Position numbers and translations under genes: made by a program
Virus record (IMG/VR): IMGVR_UViG_3300034159_000059
Origin: a virus
Length of the DNA stretch: 64,000 nt
Direction: 5' to 3' (one strand)
Notes under the pieces: generated by a model
The model's input: only the letters and a program-made list of their open reading frames with translations
What the model was told of the DNA's origin: nothing
Databases searched by the model: none
In this document: positions 6,545 to 60,368 of the stretch, piece by piece
Layout of the letters: every line of letters starts with the position of its first letter
Numbering within the stretch: position 1 is the stretch's first letter

Positions 6545-7429
6545 GTGGCTCTTCTCATCTCTTCTACTGAACTTCCTGAGCATTGGTACAACCGAGTCGC
6601 TACCTCGATCGAGCGCCTTCACTGGAAGGTGACATCGGTGGTGGCTGTATCTTTGGTAGTCGTCGTCGCATCTACCGACGCGGCTATCGATCGGCTTGCC
6701 GGCTCCGACATCAACCTCGTCTTGCTGTACCTCGTGCCTGTAGCCTTTGGCGCCTGGACAGGAAGAGCACGAATGGGCTGGGTCATCTCAACACTCAGCG
6801 CTCTCAGCGCCGTAGGTCCACACCTCATATCCTCTCCAGAGCAATCTCTCGCGCTCAGCCTGAACATGGGCGTCGATATGCTCGTCTTCCTCTCCATCAG
6901 CTACGTGCTACCAGGCCTACGCAGCCTCCTAGAACACGAGAAACTGGTCTCTCGCACAGATCATCTCACAGGGGTTGCTAACTCCAGAGCGCTTCGAGAG
7001 AGGGCTTTGCGAGAGATACTGCGAGCACGCAAGCACGGGTACGAGCTGTCGGTTGCGTATCTAGACGTAGACGATTTCAAAGCCATCAACGATAAGCACG
7101 GGCATGCAGGAGGCGATCGCATCCTCAAGCTCATCAGCTCTATCACTCGACAAGCTCTACGCTCCACAGACATGGTTGCGAGAGTAGGAGGAGATGAGTT
7201 CGCTCTACTCCTACCAAACACAGGAGCTGCGGCTGCGAAGCGCGTCGTGGAGAGAGTCCGTTCTGAGGTGTATCGAGCATCCCAGGCCGCTGGGGTAGAG
7301 GTGACGCTAAGCATCGGAGTGAAGACCTTTGCTGATATCCCATTGAGCGTAGAAGAACTCGTCGAGTCCGTGGATCTTCTCATGTACTCCGTGAAGAGAG
7401 ACCGGAAGGACGACGTCGTCTACGCCTGA
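6545..7429 (+). CDS. Membrane-anchored GGDEF-domain diguanylate cyclase
   Basis: About 4 N-terminal TM helices followed by a canonical GGDEF domain: DHLTGVANSRAL…YLDVDDFKAINDKHGHAGGD…RVGGDEFALLLP (intact GGDEF active site). GTG start after GAGAAGAGG. Confidence 0.8.
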   Translation: MALLISSTELPEHWYNRVATSIERLHWKVTSVVAVSLVVVVASTDAAIDRLAGSDINLVLLYLVPVAFGAWTGRARMGWVISTLSALSAVGPHLISSPEQSLALSLNMGVDMLVFLSISYVLPGLRSLLEHEKLVSRTDHLTGVANSRALRERALREILRARKHGYELSVAYLDVDDFKAINDKHGHAGGDRILKLISSITRQALRSTDMVARVGGDEFALLLPNTGAAAAKRVVERVRSEVYRASQAAGVEVTLSIGVKTFADIPLSVEELVESVDLLMYSVKRDRKDDVVYA

Positions 7430-15386: not shown

Positions 15387-15599
15387 ATGGCGCTACGAGG
15401 TACAGTGAAGTGGTTCAACGATGCAAAGGGCTACGGGTTCATCAAGCCTGACGATGGGGGGAAGGACATCTTTGTCCACCACTCCGTCATCAAGATGGAT
15501 GGGTTCCGCACTCTCTCTGAAGGGGAGCGCGTCGAGTACACCATCGAGGCCGGGGCGAAGGGCCCGCAGGCCGTAAACGTCTCTCGCATCTCAGAGTAG
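15387..15599 (+). CDS. cspA: Cold-shock protein (CspA family, S1-like cold-shock domain)
   Basis: [35 protein letters not shown]…[20 protein letters not shown]: canonical CSD with RNP1 (KGYGFI) and RNP2 (VFVHH) motifs. Confidence 0.9.
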
Positions 15600-42266: not shown

Positions 42267-42458
42267 ATGAAGAATGCAGTCATGGTATGGAATCTGCTAC
42301 AGAAATGGGCGGCTGCAAACAAGACAACTCCAGATGGGCGAGTGGACTTCGTTCAAGAAATCATCACCACTACAAGAGAAGTCCGCATCCGAGGCTTCTC
42401 CGTAGACATCCACATTCGTGAGCGACTCGGGCATCCAAAGAACGAGTACCCGAAGTGA
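42267..42458 (+). CDS. Small hypothetical protein
   Basis: Internal ATG of ORF 42123..42458, chosen to avoid overlap with the terminase start. Confidence 0.3.
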   Translation: MKNAVMVWNLLQKWAAANKTTPDGRVDFVQEIITTTREVRIRGFSVDIHIRERLGHPKNEYPK

Positions 42459-42802: not shown

Positions 42803-43450
42803 ATGGCAGAACTTCTCACAGGCGGGCTCGATGAGGTTGGTTGGGGAAGTCTCGCTGGTCCCATCGTTTCCGTTGTGGCGGTGATGACGAAGAAGGACCT
42901 CCTGCTTCTGCCGAAGGGGGTCACGGATTCGAAGAAGCTCAGTCCTTTACGACGAGAGAGCTTCTTTCTTCAACTCTGTGCGGCCGTCACAGACGTAGGA
43001 CTGGGTGCGGTGGAGCCCTGGGAGATCGACAAGATGGGCCCGAAGTTCGCGCTTCAGGAGAGCTACAACCGAGCGCTCGCAGAGCTGCACCACGCACCAG
43101 ACCTTCTCATCGTGGATGGCTCTGAGTGGACGAACCGGGTGAAGGGCTGGGCAGGGAAACAGGAAGTGGTCCCCAAGGCAGACTTCAAGTTCAAGGAGGT
43201 ATCCATCGCCTCCATCATCGCCAAGGTGGTGCGAGATCGGGTGATGGTCGAACGCGCAGCGCGGCTGAAGAAGCTCGGCTTCCCTGACTACAACTGGGCA
43301 GAGAACAAGGGCTACGGAACCCCCGACCACTTCGCCGCCATCCAGAACCACGGCCTTCTCTTCGGGCCCGAGCATGACGGCTATCAACACCGGAAGAGCT
43401 ACTGCAAGAACCTCATGGGGAAAGTGAAGATCTACAAGAAGGAGACCTAG
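42803..43450 (+). CDS. rnhB: Ribonuclease HII
   Basis: GLDEVGWGSLAGPIVSVVAV (DEXG catalytic motif), DSKKLS, IVDG, ASIIAKV.RD and YGT motifs of RNase HII; GAGGAG RBS. Confidence 0.85.
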   Translation: MAELLTGGLDEVGWGSLAGPIVSVVAVMTKKDLLLLPKGVTDSKKLSPLRRESFFLQLCAAVTDVGLGAVEPWEIDKMGPKFALQESYNRALAELHHAPDLLIVDGSEWTNRVKGWAGKQEVVPKADFKFKEVSIASIIAKVVRDRVMVERAARLKKLGFPDYNWAENKGYGTPDHFAAIQNHGLLFGPEHDGYQHRKSYCKNLMGKVKIYKKET

Positions 43451-43712: not shown

Positions 43713-43952
43713 ATGCTCGTGCTGGTGAAGTGCCACTGCTGTGATGTCCCCTTCCACTTCCCACAAGAGGTCCTCGCCCGGATGAAGGTTCCGTCGACCT
43801 TCTGCGAGCGCTGTTTCAACAGCTTCGACGCACTCACCCTTCGAAAGTGGTTCGTGGTCGACATTCTCCATCGACAGGTTCAGGAACTCTCCCGAACCAT
43901 CGAACAGGTGTTGGGTGGTCTTGTGAACCAAACGCCGACAGCGCTTGGGTAG
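43713..43952 (+). CDS. Cys-rich small protein (zinc-ribbon-like)
   Basis: KCHCCD…FCERCF cysteine pairs. Confidence 0.45.
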   Translation: MLVLVKCHCCDVPFHFPQEVLARMKVPSTFCERCFNSFDALTLRKWFVVDILHRQVQELSRTIEQVLGGLVNQTPTALG

Positions 43953-50013: not shown

Positions 50014-53000
50014 TTAGTAGGCGAACGGCTTCTTGCGAGTGACTTCCTTCGGAGGAGCCCCGAACTCCTTGCCGTAGGCGATTCCAGGAATGGGGTGAGC
50101 GCCGTGGATGTCGCTCTTCCACGCCTGACTGGCCCCTCGCTGAAGGGTCTGCTTGAGGCGCTGGTAGTTGAGGCGAGCCATCCAGTCGGTAGACTGGTTG
50201 GGGATGTTTCCAGAGCCAGGAAGCATGGGCTCGTGTGTGATTGGCTGCTCGTGCGTCTTGCCTTTGTTGTTGCGGTTGAACTCCTCCACCAAGGAGTGCG
50301 GAACTACGTCTCCTGGATCCCACTGAGAGCTGCCAGGGTCCTTGATCCGAGTGTAGTTGGTGAGGCTTCGAACCACGAGCTCGATGTTACGTGGCCGGAC
50401 GTTTTCGTCCTTGTAGAGCTTCCTGTAGAGCTCGTCGACCAGGTGGCGCTGCACCCCATGCATGTCCTTGGTGATGTGGAGGAGCTCCTTCGGGTGAATC
50501 GGAGCCATCTCATGAGACAAGCTCTCGCCTCGACGCACCTCCGCTCCAACCACAAGAGCAGGGTTGATTTCTCCTTCTCGAATGTGGTGGTCGATCCCGT
50601 TGATGGTAACGACGTGGCCACCAAGACCGGGGTCTGGCTTGATGCCTGTGACGGTTCCTGTGGTCTTGGCAAGAATGGCTGACCCCTTCAAGATCTTCGG
50701 CATCTTGAGTAGGTCCTTCAGTCGTTGAATCCTGGAGACGGAACCACCTCCACGGCCCGACGCGATACCTCCGGTGTGGAAGGCATCCATGGCGAGCTGA
50801 GTCGCGGGCTCGCCCAAAGCTTGTCCAGCGAGGACGCCGATGTTGGTCCCCACCGGATGGAGCTTCCCATTCTCATTGAGGCCGAAACACTTAGAGCAGA
50901 CACCTTCTCCGTGCTGGCACTTGAGAGGGGAGCGGACTTGGATCTTGGCGTCCTTCCCAAGAACCTGACGCAGGCGATCTACGAGAGCAGGAGTGACCTG
51001 TTCCCCCGCCTTGAAAGGCCCGTGGTCCTTGGCCAAGAACCGATCGTAGACGTCGAGATGGTAGGGATCCTTGGGGTCGAGAGGCATCAGGATGCCGTGC
51101 TGCGTTCCACAGTCCTCGCTCGTGATGAGCGTCGAGATTGTGGAGTTGATGATGTCCTTCGTCATCGCGCCAGGCTCTCTCGTACCGCTGGCGCGCTGGA
51201 GAGTTCCCTTGCGGGCGCCGTGCTGGGCGAGCCAGTAGTCTCCGACGTCGAGCCCCTCTCCGTAGGACCTGGTGATGGGGAAGGGAACCACGCGGCCCGT
51301 AGAATCCTGCACAAGCATCGGGGCTGCGATCATCTGTCGAAGCTGCTCTGGTTTTCCACGCGCACCGGAGTAGACCATGGCGCCGAGGTGGCTACCTTCT
51401 TTTGGCAGCCGCACTCTCGCTGCGGCGTCGAGCTTCTCCGTTGCCTTGGAGAAGATCTCCACCAGCTTCGCCTCCCTCTCCCATGAATGAAGAGACGGGT
51501 CGATCTTTGCTGCTTGATGCTGCGCCTCCGCTACGATCTGGTCGCGCTCAGGCAGAGGAGCAAAGTCCTTCAGACTGAGAGAGAACCCGTGCTTGAAGGA
51601 CTGCTCAGTACCCAGATCCTTCAGGTTGTTCACCACCTTGTCGAACTCTCCAGGATGCTTCTTGGCGAGCTCGGTGACAATGGAGCCCATTGGCTTCTTG
51701 GAGATCTCGAACTCGGGGTCGTAAAGCACTTGCCCCCGCATCGCGAAATCCCGAGGAAGGCGGGATTCGATCCGTAGACGGCCAAGCGTAGTAGGCCGGT
51801 TCCCGACTTGTTCGACTCGGACTACATCTGTGTGAGTCAGGAGTCCTTTGTCGACCAGGTCTGAGAGCTCATCGACGGTCTTCACGGTCTTGCCGGAATC
51901 CTTACCCCATTTGGAGATGAGGTGAAGGCCGAGCAGGAACTCCTGGGAAGGGATGTGCATCGCGCCGTAGGTCGTGGGAGAGAAGAGGTTCCGTGAAGGG
52001 AACATCTTCTTCGCCTCTTCCACCGCTTCTTGGGAAATAGGGACGGTGCCCGCCATCGTATCGCCGTCGAAGTCGGCGTTGAAGCCGCCACAGACCAGCG
52101 GGTGGATCTTGATGGCCTTGCCTTCCACCGTCTTGGGGCGGAACGCTTGAACCGAGAACTTGTGCAGAGCCGGATCTCTTTTGAGAAGAAGGGGTCGATC
52201 CTTCATCACCTCGTCGAGAGCCTTCTTGGCATGATCCGACTGTGCCTTCATCTCGGACATAGCTTGAGAAGGCGTGTATCCGTAGCGCGAGTGCATATGC
52301 GCCACGACGAAGGGCTTGTAGAGCTCCATCGCGGCCACACGGGGAAGCCCGATCTCGTCGATGTGAAGGGAAGGTTCAGGGACGATGGTGGACCGAATTG
52401 ACAGGTCCTGCTTCCGCTTGACGAGCTTCTCTTGGAAGTACCCCTCCTTCGGCTGATCTCCACCGATGAGGTCCACAATACCCTTCAGCTCTCGGTTGTC
52501 GAAGCTCTCCTTGTCGTAGATGGGTGTGTAGTCTCCGACAGCCTGTAGAGCCTTCATGCTGTTCCAGAGCTCGCCGCGGAGCTCGTGGACCATCTCATGC
52601 CCATACTTCTCCGCAGGCATGACCTTCATCTTCTCATTCACAAGACCCACGGTCTTGTAGAGGTCGTTGAGAGAGCTCTTCGCCACATCACCGCGTGCCG
52701 TGGGAGTCACTGGACGGAAAGCAGCCGGCAGGACCGGGATGTTTTGAAGCACGTAGGCCTCGTGCGGCTTCATGTCGAGGTCCTTCAGTGCCAGAAGGTA
52801 CTTGAGCGTGCGGTTGCTCTGGTCGCGCTTCGAGCCTCTCTTCGTAGGAAGCTCCTCCCGCAGCTTCTTGATCTCCTCTTCGACGTTGACGCTCTTCAGA
52901 GCGTCTGCGATGGCTCGACCCCCCACCTTCCCGTCGAGGGTGCTCTGCCCTGACATGATCTTGTCCACTTCCTGGACGGAGATGTCGCCATGCTTGAGGG

Positions 53001-56000
53001 AGAGAAGAGACGGGATGGGGCCCTTGTTCTGCTTGTCTCCGACAAAGAGCGGATTCGGCACCGGCTCATGGAGCTTGATGTAGCTCCACTTCTCGCCGCG
53101 GGACCCGACGATAGCAGGATCGAACAGACCGCCCTTCTCAGGCTTGAAACCCTTGGAGGTGAAGAGCAGAGGTTTGCGGATCTCGTTCTTACCGTTGTCA
53201 GCGATCTTCAGGACCTCGCGATCCGTCATAGGCACCAGCCGCATCGAGGTGCCTTCCTTGCGAACATCAACGCCGAGGCCGCGAAGCAGTCCTTCGAATT
53301 TGGTGTATGCGAAGGGGATCTTCGGAGGAGGCGGCTCTCGTCCTTCTTGAATCATCCGCCAGAAGTCGACGCCCTGCATGTCTGCTTTGTAGGTCGTCAT
53401 CTCCCGAAGGTTGTGACGCGCGTTGTGTCCGAGGAGAGAGTAGAGCTCAAGGGAGCCGAAACCCTGGCCACCAGAAGCCCCGCCCTTCACTGGCTGCATG
53501 TCCTGATCGTATTTGTACGGGCGATCGGAGAGGTCCGAACCTCCTCCGCGCACTACCAGCTTCTTCTCGACCTGGTGCTTCAGCTTGAGAAGGTGTTGAG
53601 GGCCGACGAGGATCTTGCCCAGAGGGCGTCGACGATCAGATGGGTCGAAGACTTCCTCTTCGTCAGACAAGCCATGCTTCGCAAGCTCGTCCACCACCTG
53701 CTTGCGATAGTCGTGTCCTGATCCAGCGAAGTTGTTCACGAAGAAGGGGGAGCCGGTCTTCTCTGCCACTTTACCGGCAGCAGTCTCCAAGACCTGCCCG
53801 ATGTTCATACGAGTAGGCACGCCTGATGGGTTCAGGAGCACATCAAGAGGACGGTCTGTCCCATCCGGCTTCTTCACGAAGGGCATCTCGTGGTCCGGAA
53901 GGATCTTGGTGATGATGCCCTTGTTGCCGTGGCGTCCGGAGAGCTTGTCGCCGATCTCAGCAGCTTCCTCGGTCTTCACGAAGACCTTCACGCTCTTGCC
54001 GTTCGGACTCTTCACAACTCGCGTGACGATGCCCGGGTAGTCACTGTCCCAGGTGAGAGACTTGTCCTTCCATGGCTTGATAGCCTTGTTGCCGAATCTC
54101 TCGACCATGATCTGACTCTTCACCTTGTTGGGAGTCAGACACGTAGCGAGAACCTGCCCGTTCGTTACCCTAGAGCCCTCCTTGATGACGCCATCGTCAT
54201 CCAACATGGAGAGCTTATCTTTCGAGTGGCTCGTCGCCTTGTGTGAGGCGTAGGACATCCACTTCTTCTTTGAAGTAACGTCCTCTTCCGGCGCCACATC
54301 CATCTTCAGCTTGTGCAAATGCTCGCTGGTGAGCTTCTGAGAAGCCGACTCAGAGATGACGATACCGTCTTCGAAGTTGTACCCTTTGTAGGGAATGTAG
54401 CCGACGTGGAGGTTCGTCCCTAGGGCCAGAGTGCCGTTTCGAGTGAAGTTCGAGTCGGCCACCACCTGCCCAGCCTTCACCTGGTCCCCGACCTTCACCA
54501 CCGGCTGGGAGTGCAGCATGGTAGTCGGATCATTCAGCGGGAAATGGTTGTAGAGCTGAACCTTGTGCTCAGTCTTGCCGTCGTGGACGTGGACCCCGTC
54601 CGCAGTGATCTTCGTCACCTTGCCATCCACAGGAGCTCTGTGGGCCGCGAAACTCGTGCCGATGAGCTTCTCGAAGGAGTGGGTTGGGTTGTCCGACCGC
54701 ACCAGGCTCTGCACGAGAGGGGCTTCACGGTTCTTCAGCGAGATGGCCTGTTCCATCTGCTTGTCGGCCATCGAAGCGCGGTTGCCTTGGTCGCAAGGAA
54801 GGAAGGGGATGAGGTTCGATGTGTAGCTGAACATCGCCTTCGCCGTTGGCATGAGGAAGTCTGCCTCATGGTAGGGGCGCCGACTGATGTCCCCACCAGG
54901 CAACTTCACCTTCACTTCTCTGGCGATGGGAACGTACTTGCCGTCGACCTTCTTCACCTGATCAGGCAGCACCACCATGGCCGTGTGGAACTCGGGAACA
55001 GTGACATCCTTGAGCTTCCCGGTCTTGAGATCCACGACGGTGGTGCTGAGGCTCCGACCCTCCTTGCGAACACCAGAACCGAGGTGGAGCGTGATGCCTG
55101 TACGCTCAGACTCTGGGGTATGCATCGGATCGAGGAAGGCGAAGTGAGAAGGGTTCACCCCCTGCATCTCCTCACCGACCTTCTCGGGGTCCTTGATACC
55201 ACCGTAGTCCTTGGCGATGACGGTAGTCTTGAAGTTCCCTGAGAGCATCTGTACTGGGTTCGTCTGCTCACTGCGTTCGGAGACGTTGCCGCCTTGGGTG
55301 AAGAATTCCTTGATGGGACGGTTGAAGAGATCTCCGCCCTGCATGATCTCGGAGATGACGTTCTTTCGTCCGATGGAGAGCAGGACCTTGTTCTTCACTC
55401 TCTTCTTGAAGTTGTTCTTGTCGAGCTTCTCTGGAATGAAGTCCTCGACGTGAACGACTTCCTTGAAGATCAGGCTGTCACGATCATCAGGCTCTACCTC
55501 GCGCCGCTCCAACTTGAGCAGCTTGTTCGATGCAGCGAGAAGAGCTCCTCCGGTCACCTTCTCGAACGGGTGCCCGAGTGTGGCTTTGGTGGTATCTGGG
55601 AAGAGCTGCGTATCGTCGAAGTAGCGGAAGATGTGCTCCCGCATCTCTTCCATGGACGGAGCTCGCCCGATGTCTGGCGGGGCGGTCTTCTCCCAGAACT
55701 TCCGAAGAGCTCGTTCCTCTGCCTCTGGCTGAGCGACCTTGTTGGCTTCGAAGACGGCTTTGCCCCAGGACTTCTCCATCTCGGCATCGTCTACTCCCAT
55801 CACCTTGAGAAGGGGGTATGCTGGGATCTTCGCATCCCCCGACTTGGTCTTGAAGTTGATGAGACTCTTCTTGCGATCGAGGAGTAGGTCGAAGTTCTTC
55901 GACCCGCCCTTGCGCAAGTTGAATTCAGAAACCAGGTCTCCGTTGCGCTTCACGCGCGTGTAGATGCCGGACTTGAGGCGAAGAAGGTGGTCGACTTGAT

Positions 56001-56325
56001 ACTCACCCCCGTCCACGATGAACGAGTAGCGAGAGGTGAGCTTGGGGACCCGAGCGAGTTGGATGGTCGACTTGGAGATGGGCTTGCCCGTGATGTTGTC
56101 GATCAGCTCCATCTCCGCCCGGATCGGCACACCCCAAGTCTGTTCGTTGTGCTTGGCTTGGAGCTGCGAAGCGACATCGTTCGGATCGAGAGTATCTTCC
56201 GCCCAGATTCTCTTGAGCGACAGAGTTCTCTGACTCGTCTGGATGGGGAAGATGCTGGAAATCTGCTGGATGACGCCATTGGTGAGGGTCGTCATCTTGT
56301 CGGCGGTCTTAGGCTCACCGGCCAC
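50014..56325 (-). CDS. rpoBC: Single-polypeptide bacterial-type multisubunit RNA polymerase: beta (RpoB-like) fused to beta' (RpoC-like), 2103 aa
   Basis: Beta signatures [12 protein letters not shown] and [22 protein letters not shown]…[17 protein letters not shown]; beta' catalytic motif [24 protein letters not shown]; the beta' N-terminal Zn-finger region appears absent; GTG start with GGAG RBS (alternative ATG at 56295). Confidence 0.9.
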   Translation of the reverse strand: [2103 protein letters not shown]

Positions 56326-56448
56326 GGGTGCTCCAGTTGCACCTCGCGCTGGGTGCTATATCTGTCAGCCCTCTCTCTGCGCGTCTAGAGGTCTTCGGGC
56401 CGTATCGACTCGATGCGAGGATACAAGCACGGCCCACAGCATGGCAAC

Positions 56449-56477
56449 GAAAAGGCTCGAAGATCCAAGGCATAAGA
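56449..56477 (+). promoter_or_regulatory. Candidate promoter: GAAAAG-N17-ATAAGA
   Basis: Third exact copy of the bipartite motif, at the head of the + island 56533-58213. Confidence 0.4.
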
Positions 56478-56766
56478 AGTTGCAGGAGAACTGGTAGGCA
56501 TCTCTTGCTTTTACTCCGACCAGAGAGTGGTGATGAGCACCAAGCCTAACTCTACCGAGTTCGAAGAAGAAGTCCTGAGCTCGCTGTATGGAGACGAAGA
56601 GGGCAGCGATGACGTAGACGAAGGGACCGACGAGAGGGAGGAAGAGGTATGGCAGGAATCTTCATAGGAGCGTTCGTGGTTGGAATGCTCAGCTACTTCG
56701 TGATGCGGTTCACGCAGGCTTTGCAGGAAGTCCAAGTGCAGCAGGGATGGGGCTACTGAGGGCACC

Positions 56767-57180
56767 ATGGATCGTCCGCCATTTTGCAAGATCCTCTTCG
56801 GGAAGAATGGAGGGAAGTTCACGGCGACAGGCTTGCCGGACTTCAACCGAGAGGACGAGGACGATTGGGTCCGTGGGTGCTGTACCCGAGCCTTCGACTG
56901 CGGAAGTTGTCTCTTCCTCCAGGAGTGGCTCGCAGCTCTTCAGGCGCAAGGATGGGAGTTCGGTTGGGAGTGTGATCAGTGTCTAAGAGAGACCCTCCCC
57001 CTCGATCGGCAGAACGGAGTGACCCGGTCTGTGCAGGGCTTTTATCAAGCCGGGCGACGTGCAGGTCTCACTCCCGACGATCCTGATTACGATCCAGACA
57101 TGCCAGGGCTCGAAGGTTGTACACGCAACTGTGGATGGGAGAGCAGTCTTCTACAACTCGTACTGAGGAAACGGCCATGA
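56767..57180 (+). CDS. Cys-rich hypothetical protein
   Basis: 137 aa with at least 10 Cys (CCTRAFDCGSC…WECDQC…CTRNC). Confidence 0.45.
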   Translation: MDRPPFCKILFGKNGGKFTATGLPDFNREDEDDWVRGCCTRAFDCGSCLFLQEWLAALQAQGWEFGWECDQCLRETLPLDRQNGVTRSVQGFYQAGRRAGLTPDDPDYDPDMPGLEGCTRNCGWESSLLQLVLRKRP

Positions 57181-57416
57181 GTGAAGCGGTTCTCGCAAGG
57201 AGCACGCAGTCGACTACGAAGAAGGTTGCTTGGTCCGAAGCCATGAAGATGGTGCAGGCCAAGATCAAGGACACGACGCAGCAGAAGGTGCTTCAAGCGA
57301 TGCTCTCGGGGACGTACCCCTCTGGCGACATCGCTCGGAAGCTGGGCATCCCTTGCCGCGAGGTGGAGCGCATCAAGGACGCCATCTGGAAGATGATCGA
57401 CGAGCTGGTGGGCTAG
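57177..57416 (+). CDS. Small protein with a sigma-70 region-4-like HTH
   Basis: …QKVLQAMLSGTYPSGDIARKLGIPCREVERIKDAIWKMIDELVG resembles sigma region 4.2/LuxR-type HTH; ATGA overlap with the upstream gene. Confidence 0.5.
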   Translation: MSEAVLARSTQSTTKKVAWSEAMKMVQAKIKDTTQQKVLQAMLSGTYPSGDIARKLGIPCREVERIKDAIWKMIDELVG

Positions 57417-57632
57417 GTGTCTTGCGCCCTTTGCGGAGGGCCGATCCTCAAGGGGCAGTGGTGGGCGCGCACTCAGGCCTTCGTCAACATCATCGACGCG
57501 CATGGGCAGGCAGTATCCGTCCCTGTTGTCTTGGAGGACGGAGCTTCTAACAAAGAGGCTCACTACGGCTGTCTTCTCAAACGCTGCCCAGAACTGATCG
57601 GTGTGAAATGGGGTGAGCCGAGAGAACCATGA
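57417..57632 (+). CDS. Cys-rich small protein
   Basis: GTG start; CALCGG…YGCLLKRC. Confidence 0.4.
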   Translation: MSCALCGGPILKGQWWARTQAFVNIIDAHGQAVSVPVVLEDGASNKEAHYGCLLKRCPELIGVKWGEPREP

Positions 57633-58213
57633 CCAACTTCTACAATCCAACACCTCAACAAGGAACCCCATCTCTCGGGCCCTACACCGAGCAACAAGCT
57701 CCGTTCCTTGAATGCTCGAACTGCGGTACTCCGATCACGGTGGGGCAGCGCTACACCATGGTATGCGAGTACCTGCTAGGAGTGGACCTAGCCACAGGGC
57801 AGCTTGTTCCAGTGGCTTGTGTCGACTTCGAGGAAAGTGTAGCGGTCCACTCCGCGTGCTCCGCAGAGTACGCCCACGATCAGATCACCAAAGAGCCCTG
57901 CGGAAAGGACGAGGAAGATGCGCAGAGTGATTGTCCCTTCTGCGGAGCGGAGGGATGCACCCATTGTAGGGAACGTCTTCGAGAAGTTGATGCGTCCTTG
58001 CTCAAGGAACCAGTGACTCGTTCAGACATCCTCGACCAAGAGGATATGATCGAGAACGCCGTAGGGGTTCAGAAGTTCCTCTTCGACCGGGTTCGGAACG
58101 GGCAGCCGGACACGGCTGTAACGAACGAGCTCTGGTACATCCATGAGCTTCTCAATCAAGCAGCCGAGAGGCTGTCGAACCTTCGAGCCGCAGGAGTGTT
58201 TCCAGACACGTAG
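57629..58213 (+). CDS. Cys-rich hypothetical protein (zinc-binding-like)
   Basis: ECSNCGT…DCPFCGAEGCTHC motifs; ATGA overlap. Confidence 0.5.
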   Translation: MTNFYNPTPQQGTPSLGPYTEQQAPFLECSNCGTPITVGQRYTMVCEYLLGVDLATGQLVPVACVDFEESVAVHSACSAEYAHDQITKEPCGKDEEDAQSDCPFCGAEGCTHCRERLREVDASLLKEPVTRSDILDQEDMIENAVGVQKFLFDRVRNGQPDTAVTNELWYIHELLNQAAERLSNLRAAGVFPDT

Positions 58214-58225
58214 ATGTGGCGAGGA

Positions 58226-58258
58226 GAAGCCGACGAAGTTCGTCGGCTTCTTTTTAGC
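58226..58258 (+). terminator. Rho-independent terminator
   Basis: GAAGCCGACG-aagtt-CGTCGGCTTC followed by TTTTTAGCC. Confidence 0.75.
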
Positions 58259-58262
58259 CTGT

Positions 58263-60368
58263 CTAGACGCCCGTCGAGGATGCCCGGCGAGTTGGGCGCT
58301 GCGTCGGTTGCGGAGTCTTGGCGTCGAGAGGGCTGGGTCCTCTGTTCTGGTTGATGATTTGGAGTACCAAATTCCCGAGCTGCGGATTCGACATCCGCAC
58401 CTTGTTGATCTCCATCATCATCGCGCTCTCGCCTTGCTCGTCTCCGACCTTCTTGATCTGGTTCGCTGCTCTCTTTGCCAGATAGAGAAGGTTGTAGCCG
58501 CCACCCTTCTGACCAAGCTGGAGCGGGCTGGACGCGGAGACAGGAACCCCATCCGTCGGCGCTTGCTGCGCGTTGTCTGGAGAGACCGTCGACCCTTCTG
58601 GCATTCCTGGAGCGGCTTGGGGACCTGGGACCATCTCCCCTTCCTGCCCAGACTGCTGACCTCCCATGCCCGGCATCCCAGGCATGCCTCCAGCCTGGGA
58701 TGGGTCTTGTCCCTCTCCCTGCGCGCCTGCCGGGCCGCCGGCACCTGCCTGAGCGTCGGCACCCGCTCCAGCGCCTGCCCCTTGCTGGCCACCCGCTCCC
58801 CCCGTCGCCTCCATGAGCTCCTGCTGCGCCTTTGCCTGATACCGGGTCTGGACCATCATCATCTCGCCCTGGATACCGGCTTGGGCGAGCTGCTGCTTCC
58901 GCATGACGTCGAGTTTGTGGTCCAGCTCCAGAGCCTTCCGCTCTTCCTCCACGGCGATGTCCTGGTCGACCTCGGATAGAAGCGTCTGGTCTGAGAGCTT
59001 GTCCGCCTGGTTGAGGGTGAACATGAAGTTGGAGCGCTGGAGATCGTCAGCCATCTTGAAGCGCTTCATGTGAGCCCGGACAATGGGCCACTGCATGAAG
59101 TTGGCGATTCGACGGATGACGAAGTTGTTGAGCATGTTCTCGTGGTCCTGACGGTACCCGATGAACATGTTCTCCAGCATTCGCATCGAAACGTTCGACC
59201 CCGAGTAGGTGAGGCCGCCGTAGACGAACTCTTGAGGAACGCCCATGCCGGCCACGATCTGTTTCGACCAGACGTCCATCTCTTGGTAGAGACCGAGGGC
59301 CTTCCCGTCCCCTCCAATGGACTCGTTCCCGATCGGCACAGGAAGGATGGGGAGGTAGTTGTTGTCGTACTTCCACTTGGCGATCTCTGCCTCGATACGC
59401 TGGCGCCAAGAGTTCAGGTCGAGAGTGGTGTACGGATCGCTGGTGTTTGAGCCTGCCTGGGGGAAGAGGATGCGCAGCGGGACGATGTGCTCCTGAGCGA
59501 TCGACTCCTGAGCCTTGCGAAGGATCTGGAGGTAGAAGGTGTCCTTCAGGACCGGCAGGATGAGAGGCATGCCCCAGCCGTTGTCCTTCTGGGAGATGAT
59601 GGGGCGCTTGAAGACGAAGATGTTGTCGTCGGTGAAGCGGATGTACTTGTTGCGCCGCAGAGCCTCGACGAAGATGTCAGGGACGGTGTCGAGAACGTTC
59701 TTCTTCCCCAGGATAAGATCGTTCTTGAGCTGAAGGGGGAGTTCGAAGGTGTAGATGGGGTCTGCGCCACCGAAGCCCGGGTCGATGTTGATGTACTCCG
59801 GATTCCACCGCATCAGGCGGATGCGCCGCAAATCTCGGTCGTACCAGTCCAAGACAGCAGCAGGACCCTCCCTCCCGCACTTGTCACAAGAGATGATGTA
59901 CTCCAAGTTACGCCACTTGTAGTGGATCTTGGAGGCCTTCTCCTTATGCTTGCAGCTCTTGCAGATGAGGTACTTGGTGAAGGGGAAGTGGATGGTGACG
60001 GCGCAAATGCCGTAGGTGTAGTAGTCGAGCCCAACCTCGATCTGGAATGCTCGGTACCGAAGATGCTGACCAAGCAGGATCTCCCACTTCTCACGGATCC
60101 GCTGATCCTTCTCGTCGATGACGATCTCGGTGACGGGGTACTCACTCATCTTGTGGATGACCACGTTGATGAGTGGGTTGACGAGATAGTAGTAGCGGCA
60201 CCACCTGAGCAGCGCCTTCATCGAAGGCGGCAGATATGTGTGCGCGATGTCGAAGAAGGGAGACGGGTAGCGAACACCACTGCGGTTCGTTCCGTCAGCG
60301 GTACGTCCGCGCTGTCCCGAGAACCGGGAAGCGCCTCCGTAACCGAGGGACAGGTTGTCGTAGCTCAT
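58263..60368 (-). CDS. Putative portal protein (701 aa) with a Gly/Ala/Gln/Pro-rich C-terminal tail
   Basis: Size and position are right for a portal; low-complexity C-terminus GAGAGADAQAGAGGPAGAQGEGQ…; no motif-level proof. Confidence 0.55.
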   Translation of the reverse strand: MSYDNLSLGYGGASRFSGQRGRTADGTNRSGVRYPSPFFDIAHTYLPPSMKALLRWCRYYYLVNPLINVVIHKMSEYPVTEIVIDEKDQRIREKWEILLGQHLRYRAFQIEVGLDYYTYGICAVTIHFPFTKYLICKSCKHKEKASKIHYKWRNLEYIISCDKCGREGPAAVLDWYDRDLRRIRLMRWNPEYINIDPGFGGADPIYTFELPLQLKNDLILGKKNVLDTVPDIFVEALRRNKYIRFTDDNIFVFKRPIISQKDNGWGMPLILPVLKDTFYLQILRKAQESIAQEHIVPLRILFPQAGSNTSDPYTTLDLNSWRQRIEAEIAKWKYDNNYLPILPVPIGNESIGGDGKALGLYQEMDVWSKQIVAGMGVPQEFVYGGLTYSGSNVSMRMLENMFIGYRQDHENMLNNFVIRRIANFMQWPIVRAHMKRFKMADDLQRSNFMFTLNQADKLSDQTLLSEVDQDIAVEEERKALELDHKLDVMRKQQLAQAGIQGEMMMVQTRYQAKAQQELMEATGGAGGQQGAGAGAGADAQAGAGGPAGAQGEGQDPSQAGGMPGMPGMGGQQSGQEGEMVPGPQAAPGMPEGSTVSPDNAQQAPTDGVPVSASSPLQLGQKGGGYNLLYLAKRAANQIKKVGDEQGESAMMMEINKVRMSNPQLGNLVLQIINQNRGPSPLDAKTPQPTQRPTRRASSTGV

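Follow-up and report, generated by a model that had tools for sequence, protein, structure and literature searches.

In phage T4, gp33 binds the flap of RNA polymerase (RNAP) and constitutes a split sigma factor together with gp55 (PMC12867686), and sigma appropriation is accomplished by AsiA and MotA (PMC6755090). In both cases the logic is the same: a small protein of the phage takes effect at the interface of sigma region 4 (sigma4), the beta-flap and the -35 element. Virions of Salmonella phage Arash contain the RNAP subunits beta and beta' among the most abundant proteins detected, along with the sigma factor gp10 (PMC10585845). Here we analyzed p79, a 79-aa protein encoded next to a fused beta-beta' RNAP gene on a 64,000-nucleotide stretch of viral DNA (IMG/VR record IMGVR_UViG_3300034159_000059; hereafter the window), for which a place at the same interface may be proposed by analogy. 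The p79 gene belongs to a compact plus-strand cassette of six open reading frames (ORFs; in order p44, p36, p137, p79, p71 and p194) that occupies positions 56442-58255, with the start of the RNAP gene on one side and the 3' end of the portal gene on the other. The nearest cultured relatives, though distant ones, are Arash and Vibrio phages D69, D148 and D181, with 28-30% identity in the portal and 29-32% in the RNAP. In these cultured phages, too, portal and multisubunit RNAP genes are neighbours, the portal gene lying directly upstream. Beta and beta' are fused in one polypeptide in the phage studied here, whereas in Arash they are separate genes, and only a 92-aa ORF on the same strand (gp205) separates portal and RNAP in Arash. 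A literature search yielded no account specific to this phage clade or to fused-RNAP phages.

The p79 protein is predicted to adopt a sigma4 fold. An AlphaFold2 (AF2) model built from a two-sequence alignment comprises four helices (residues 4-29, 33-43, 49-56 and 60-78), with a predicted local distance difference test score of 78 overall and of 82-90 from residue 21 onwards, and displays the four-helix arrangement with a C-terminal helix-turn-helix (HTH) that characterizes sigma-70 region 4. Its best structural matches are sigma4 domains, with the whole 4.1 and 4.2 unit covered (58-77 aligned residues) at an identity of only 9-16%; examples are those of Fusobacterium sigma-H (3mzy), E. coli sigmaE region 4 on -35 DNA (2h27) and S. 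aureus sigmaA domain 4 (4g6d). These are followed by two stand-alone HTH proteins, YlxM/UPF0122 (1xsv, score 7.1) and KorA/TrfB of plasmid RK2 (5clv, 6.9), and at lower scores (5.3-6.1) by LuxR/NarL-type domains (1je8, 3kln), all of them comparable to p79 in being sigma4- or LuxR-like but without sequence relationship to it. Foldseek likewise ranked sigma4 and LuxR-type domains first (TMq 0.53-0.63). The protein is basic, with 13 K/R against 9 D/E.

A preliminary description of this DNA had likened the C-terminus of p79 to sigma-70 region 4.2. The likeness holds at the level of the predicted fold and fails at the level of sequence: a sigma70_r4, ECF or LuxR match was found neither with Pfam or NCBIfam nor by PDB profile search or hhalign. 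The Pfam models Sigma70_r4, r4_2 and GerE did not hit p79 or its homologue even at E<=10, placing p79 outside the LuxR/GerE-type HTH family (PF00196) as well. When p79 was compared by hhalign with an alignment of six sigma4 sequences (E. coli rpoD, rpoS, rpoH, rpoE and fliA, and Arash gp10), only the 18-residue HTH core was aligned (Prob 1.3%, P 0.039), a weak negative given the shallow profiles; the register is the correct one and agrees with the hydrophobic pattern.

The distribution of p79 is narrow. An IMG/VR scan with the portal protein retrieved 24 related contigs (portal identity 43-76%), and neither in these loci nor elsewhere in the window was p79 detected by tblastn or by a hidden Markov model (HMM) of p79 and its homologue. 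A word-indexed search of 5.8 billion proteins returned p79 itself only, and an exhaustive HMMER scan of 1.84 billion representative proteins added just one true homologue, P0002, which is 58% identical and comes from a 964-bp contig where p137, p79, p71 and p194 follow each other in the order seen here. In the protein databases there are two clusters for p79 versus 35 for p137. In L001, which is among the closest relatives by portal identity, an unrelated 110-aa ORF fills the p79 slot between the p137 and p71 homologues, and the slot is empty in L002 and L012. The L001 ORF (6530-6862, minus strand) encodes an acidic, apparently beta-rich protein without Pfam match. Comparison of the window with L026 gave ratios of non-synonymous to synonymous substitution rates (dN/dS) of 0.12 for p137, 0.17 for p71 and 0.68 for p79. 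L026 nevertheless keeps the p79 ORF, the ATGA overlap at its start and the junction with p71, despite a synonymous divergence (dS) of 0.6 and an in-frame indel of nine codons. Judged by these comparisons, p79 is a fast-evolving, lineage-specific insertion of accessory character that lies outside the conserved core of the cassette. Its absence from relatives, the lone homologue, the swapped slot and the high dN/dS thus show that p79 is no conserved companion of the polymerase.

The cassette and its flanking genes are composed as follows.

50014-56325, minus strand: fused beta-beta' RNAP gene, an ORF of 2103 aa with the catalytic NADFDGD motif present
56418-56447, minus strand: sigma70-like promoter candidate of the RNAP gene from a consensus scan, TTGCCA (56447-56442), 18-nt spacer, TATCCT (56423-56418)
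56448-56478, plus strand: bipartite promoter-like motif ahead of the cassette genes, CGAAAAG, 14 nt, GGCATAAGAA (56469-56478)
56533-56667, plus strand: p44, ORF for an acidic 44-aa peptide whose acidic tail comes after an F-E-E-E..L..L.G motif
56649-56759, plus strand: p36, ORF for a hydrophobic 36-aa peptide with a single membrane span predicted from sequence
56767-57180, plus strand: p137, ORF for a Cys8 protein, the conserved cassette anchor adjoining the RNAP gene
57177-57416, plus strand: p79, ORF for a predicted sigma-region-4-fold HTH protein, lineage-specific insertion
57417-57632, plus strand: p71, ORF with GTG start for a small Cys-Cys-His-Cys (CCHC) zinc-ribbon-type protein (C3, C6, H49 and C52, from alignment)
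57629-58213, plus strand: p194, ORF for a protein with a CCHC zinc-ribbon domain, a Cys cluster and a C-terminal helical domain (ORF and alignment)
58226-58255, plus strand: intrinsic terminator by fold energy, 11-bp stem GAAGCCGACGA/TCGTCGGCTTC, then TTTTT
58263-60368, minus strand: portal gene, an ORF of 701 aa

All ORFs of the preliminary description were recovered in the ORF list at the positions it had given, and an independent gene caller applied to the source contig had also called p44, p36, p137, p79 and p194. The genes are tightly packed: ATGA overlaps join p137 to p79 and p71 to p194, and the TAG stop of p79 directly abuts the GTG start of p71, which suggests translational coupling along the cassette.

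The order of portal, opposite-strand island and RNAP is kept in 22 of the 24 related contigs, with islands ranging from 1.5 to 5.6 kb. A recurrent arrangement is apparent within them: an acidic peptide that combines an F-E-(D/E)-E..(A/S)(L/I)..G motif with an acidic tail, a transmembrane (TM) peptide of 35-39 aa, a p137 homologue, one or two CCHC zinc-ribbon proteins and a helical protein of ~70-84 aa. Counterparts of p44 were recognized by position and composition in L001, L002, L012, L006, L008, L013, L015, L018, L019, L023 and L024, and counterparts of p36 at the same position in L001, L002, L012, L010, L011, L017 and L019. The two tiny overlapping ORFs, which had been put forward only as possible genes, are therefore real genes, since their kind, order and position are kept among related phages. 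In a more distant branch (L016-L021 and L023) the island holds the acidic and TM peptides in some members only, together with a ~195-aa protein, a protein of two tandem zinc-ribbon modules, a P-loop-type protein of ~420 aa and a ~450-aa protein. Owing to this varied content, the region between portal and RNAP is an accessory region of flexible make-up in which a small head is conserved. Pfam gave no match for the accessory ORFs that relatives carry in this island. The conserved core thus delimited consists of the two small peptides (one acidic, one of the membrane), p137, the CCHC zinc-ribbon protein or proteins and a helical module of ~70 aa, and has no known relatives; DNA and protein searches of 50,697 GenBank phage records gave no match to the region, to p79 or to p137.

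That the island is a plus-strand transcription unit apart, equipped with a promoter-like motif and a terminator of its own, as had been proposed earlier, is borne out at both ends. Downstream of p194, a G+C-rich 11-bp stem (58226-58250) is followed by TTTTT at 58251-55, the hairpin and U run typical of an intrinsic (Rho-independent) terminator. Its folding energy of -29.3 kcal/mol corresponds to z = -6.8, with none of 200 shuffled sequences folding as well; a consensus scanner did not list the hairpin. At the upstream end, a sigma70 consensus scan detected no canonical plus-strand promoter in the intergenic region preceding the cassette. The motif found there instead contains ATAAGAA, a heptamer present in six copies in the window (7462, 7619, 8232, 39742, 42458 and 56472), all of which are on the plus strand, intergenic and upstream of plus-strand genes. 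As intergenic DNA makes up ~8.7% of the window, the probability of this arrangement by chance is ~1e-8. The form that recurs window-wide is GGnATAAGAA(g). Five of the six sites have a (C/G)AAA element 14-15 nt ahead of its conserved GG, with 7619 falling outside this assessment. Upstream of the cassette, the motif is kept as GGCATAAG(A/G) in most relatives, including those devoid of p79. We therefore put forward CGAAAG, 14-15 nt, GGCATAAGAA as a candidate promoter consensus of the clade. Promoters of the sigma28 type have the layout TAAA-N15-GCCGATAA, which the layout of the ATAAGAA motif may loosely recall.

The cassette motif and the promoter candidate of the RNAP gene lie back-to-back on opposite strands, within intergenic blocks that are conserved among phages whose proteins are only ~60-75% identical. 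Both hexamers of the RNAP promoter fall inside blocks conserved in L001, L002 and L012, and further relatives have TTGAC(C/G)/TTGCCA ... TA(T/C)(C/T)CT. Within 56326-56447 (minus strand), TTGCCA-N18-TATCCT is succeeded by a leader with ~90 conserved nt (GGCCCGAAGACCTC...GCGCAGAGAGAGGGC) that runs ahead of the GTG start of the RNAP gene; it is likewise kept in L001, L002 and L012 and possibly structured. An Rfam search of the cassette region including this leader returned no family match, and a tRNA scan of the whole window found none. Elsewhere in the window, the ATAAGAA copy at 42458 heads a second plus-strand cassette that includes RNase HII (42803-43450, plus strand, E 8e-28) and ends at 43952, followed by the same kind of hairpin and then TTTTTAGC. 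Because the same motif precedes the RNase HII cassette, it points to a non-structural expression class, and from its sequence context the motif looks like the mark of a phage-specific, non-late promoter class for non-structural cassettes.

The three Cys-rich products had been described as zinc-binding-like, an assessment that agrees with the conserved Cys/His patterns of putative zinc sites in p137, p71 and p194. Eight of the nine Cys residues of p137 are invariant across 27 aligned homologues; tblastn located homologues at 15 loci among the 24 related contigs, and the 35 homologue clusters in the 5.8-billion-protein database are all unannotated. In 15 sequences of the p71/p194 type, C-x2-C...H-x2-C is invariant (C29, C32, H74 and C77 in p194), providing p71 and the N-terminal domain of p194 with the two conserved metal-ligand pairs of a zinc ribbon or zinc knuckle. 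Binding of zinc by p137, p71 and p194 is suggested by these residues. Pfam zinc-ribbon matches of p71 and p194 stay below threshold (E 0.02-0.2) and zinc-finger matches in the PDB are weak (E>=0.05); with Pfam, PHROGs and NCBIfam, none of the six cassette proteins had a match above threshold. p71 is a paralogue of the p194 N-terminal domain and clusters with p194 and its relatives; p71 homologues are present in L001 and L026, and analogous small paralogues in L004, L008, L009 and L013. p194 itself carries a second cluster, C-x2-C-x4-C-x2-C (C102-C113), and is a gene fusion: its zinc-ribbon and helical parts are separate adjacent ORFs wherever relatives had both (window 57629-58213 compared with L001 5702-6324, L002 12154-12750 and L012 13870-14534). 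In the 5.8-billion-protein database, p194 is matched over its full length by itself alone, and the other matches span 47-60% of the query. The fusion of otherwise separate neighbours implies that the zinc-ribbon and helical proteins work together.

The fused RNAP can be aligned to beta and beta' of E. coli, including the clamp helices of beta', and its flap-tip segment is alignable, albeit ~6 residues shorter (IMVERFGNKA versus LLRAIFGEKA in E. coli). On account of these alignments the enzyme appears to be of bacterial type and plausibly sigma-dependent. A gene for alpha or omega was not noticed in the window. No sigma70-family gene was found among the 58 other ORFs of the window, either in a Pfam sweep or by phmmer with E. 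coli sigma factors and Arash gp10, and an IMG/VR scan for gp10 relatives yielded Arash-like phages only. A sigma2-like partner for p79 was also not found among these 58 ORFs, the 64-kb window being part of a genome of about 200 kb, a size derived from a 209-kb JGI contig that encodes proteins identical to p137 and p194.

Given its fold, its basic charge and its patchy distribution, we consider p79 to be, probably though by no means securely, an accessory, free-standing HTH regulator of the sigma4 fold, co-expressed with the conserved cassette and most simply DNA-binding like KorA or YlxM. In this reading the cassette is a self-contained, non-late transcription unit inserted opposite in direction to the portal and RNAP genes, and the p79 gene has been inserted into it at the junction of p137 and the zinc-ribbon gene. 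Made together with the cassette from the phage-specific promoter, p79 might act as a small basic transcription regulator that modulates host or phage promoters; DNA binding and a regulatory role are both inferred. Genes for optional, accessory HTH proteins are common in phages. Several observations weigh against this reading. The fold comes from the two-sequence AF2 model, for which Foldseek gives no significant match (best E 0.2), and p79 belongs to no HTH or sigma sequence family of Pfam, NCBIfam or the PDB profile search; its best Pfam matches, Phage_CP76 (E 0.0023) and HTH_28 (E 0.018), are sub-threshold and, like one to the AraC-like QhpR (E 0.019), were not used. Residues R584, E585 and R588, which we take to be the -35 contacts of sigma70, are not conserved in p79 in the hhalign register. 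The dN/dS of 0.68 would equally suit a gene that is decaying or under weak constraint, and the expression timing of the cassette is deduced from its motifs.

Instead of binding DNA as a regulator in its own right, p79 could be a mimic or competitor of sigma4 that docks on the beta-flap tip of the host or phage RNAP, or titrates a sigma4-binding partner, thereby blocking or re-routing -35-dependent initiation as T4 gp33 or AsiA do, with a different fold relationship. Such a role, akin to that of an anti-sigma factor or appropriator, we regard as rather unlikely, but it has several points in its favour: the ranking of sigma4 ahead of LuxR-type and other HTH domains over the whole 4.1 and 4.2 unit, the T4 precedents gp33/gp55 (PMC12867686) and AsiA/MotA (PMC6755090), and a dN/dS and patchy distribution that fit a gene of host interaction or an arms race. 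As the fused RNAP retains an alignable, shortened flap tip together with the clamp helices, a docking site for sigma4 is plausible. Without sequence similarity to sigma4, however, the flap-contact residues of p79 are not comparable, and KorA and YlxM, stand-alone proteins of this fold that bind DNA, score nearly as well. Moreover, neither a sequence nor a fold match to AsiA, MotA or gp33 was among the matches listed for p79, which resembles sigma4 itself and not, as in T4, a binder of sigma4.

The strongest of the proposals in the preliminary description gives p79 the role of specificity factor or minimal sigma-like subunit to the fused RNAP; p79 would in that case supply the region-4 half in a split sigma. 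This did not survive comparison with related phages and is very improbable. It would account for the sigma4-like predicted fold, for the nearness of the two genes and for the lack of a sigma70-family gene among the other window ORFs, and it would suit an RNAP that is sigma-dependent in type, gp10 being present along with beta and beta' in Arash virions (PMC10585845). A specificity subunit of the clade should be co-conserved with the RNAP, yet p79 is missing from 24 of 24 contigs, 22 of which have a homologous RNAP beside the cassette (35-67% identity over the N-terminal 400 residues). The single homologue in 1.84 billion proteins, the 35 clusters of the neighbouring p137 and the exchanged slot speak against it in the same way, and the promoter motif of the cassette is kept in phages that lack p79. 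p79 is a sigma4-like unit only: unlike sigma-70 factors it has no region 2 or 3 and no profile match, a functional sigma would require region 2, for core binding and -10 recognition, in the same polypeptide or in a dedicated partner, and the window yielded no sigma2-like candidate for the latter. For a core transcription subunit, the dN/dS of 0.68 is atypical.

An altogether different explanation denies the HTH and sees in p79 a HAMP-like helical hairpin, or a weakly constrained or decaying ORF without specific function; this we judge improbable. Besides the high dN/dS, it draws on phmmer matches with eight poly-HAMP signalling proteins, the best at E 5.6e-9, and on a motif that p79 has in common with the connector and second helix (AS2) of HAMP, GD(I/L)..K(L/I)...E(V/I)..(I/L)K..I..M(I/V)(D/E).L. 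Those scores, however, sum four to six non-independent, near-identical repeats, of which one, seen directly, contributes ~10 bits; the Pfam HAMP model misses p79, and a single-repeat match to a poly-HAMP chain in the PDB has E 1.3. With neither a HAMP profile match nor a helix-connector-helix fold, the predicted model being an HTH, homology to HAMP was rejected. The ORF, ATGA overlap and p71 junction preserved in L026 also argue against decay. Returning to the accessory regulator that we favour, a more far-reaching role may be imagined next to it, in which p79 would work in trans as a sigma4 module on the flap tip of the phage or host enzyme, supplying or blocking -35 recognition, or in which the zinc proteins would be RNAP accessories; we attach little probability to either. 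Being always adjacent, the Cys8 and CCHC proteins could be accessory or assembly factors of the alpha-less fused RNAP. If the first of these ideas were true, p79 would be a region 4 split off in nature and used by one lineage as an optional switch of promoter specificity.

Two further window genes were noted. A protein with a GGDEF diguanylate cyclase domain (6545-7429, plus strand, Pfam E 3e-35) could manipulate cyclic di-GMP signalling of the host, and a cold-shock-domain protein (15387-15599, plus strand, E 1e-30) is followed by a strong hairpin.

Should p79 act at the interface of sigma4 and flap, it would be a natural case of a sigma domain that works as a module on its own and can be exchanged, found in a phage with its own bacterial-type RNAP, and would bear on how phage multisubunit polymerases find their promoters. 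The more solid yield for this uncultured clade of ~200-kb phages is a conserved divergent promoter region, a candidate phage-specific promoter consensus and a conserved five-element cassette with proteins of zinc-binding type next to the RNAP gene. The cassette is conserved dark matter beside a fused bacterial-type RNAP, and promoter region, consensus and cassette alike become targets once a member of the clade has been cultured.

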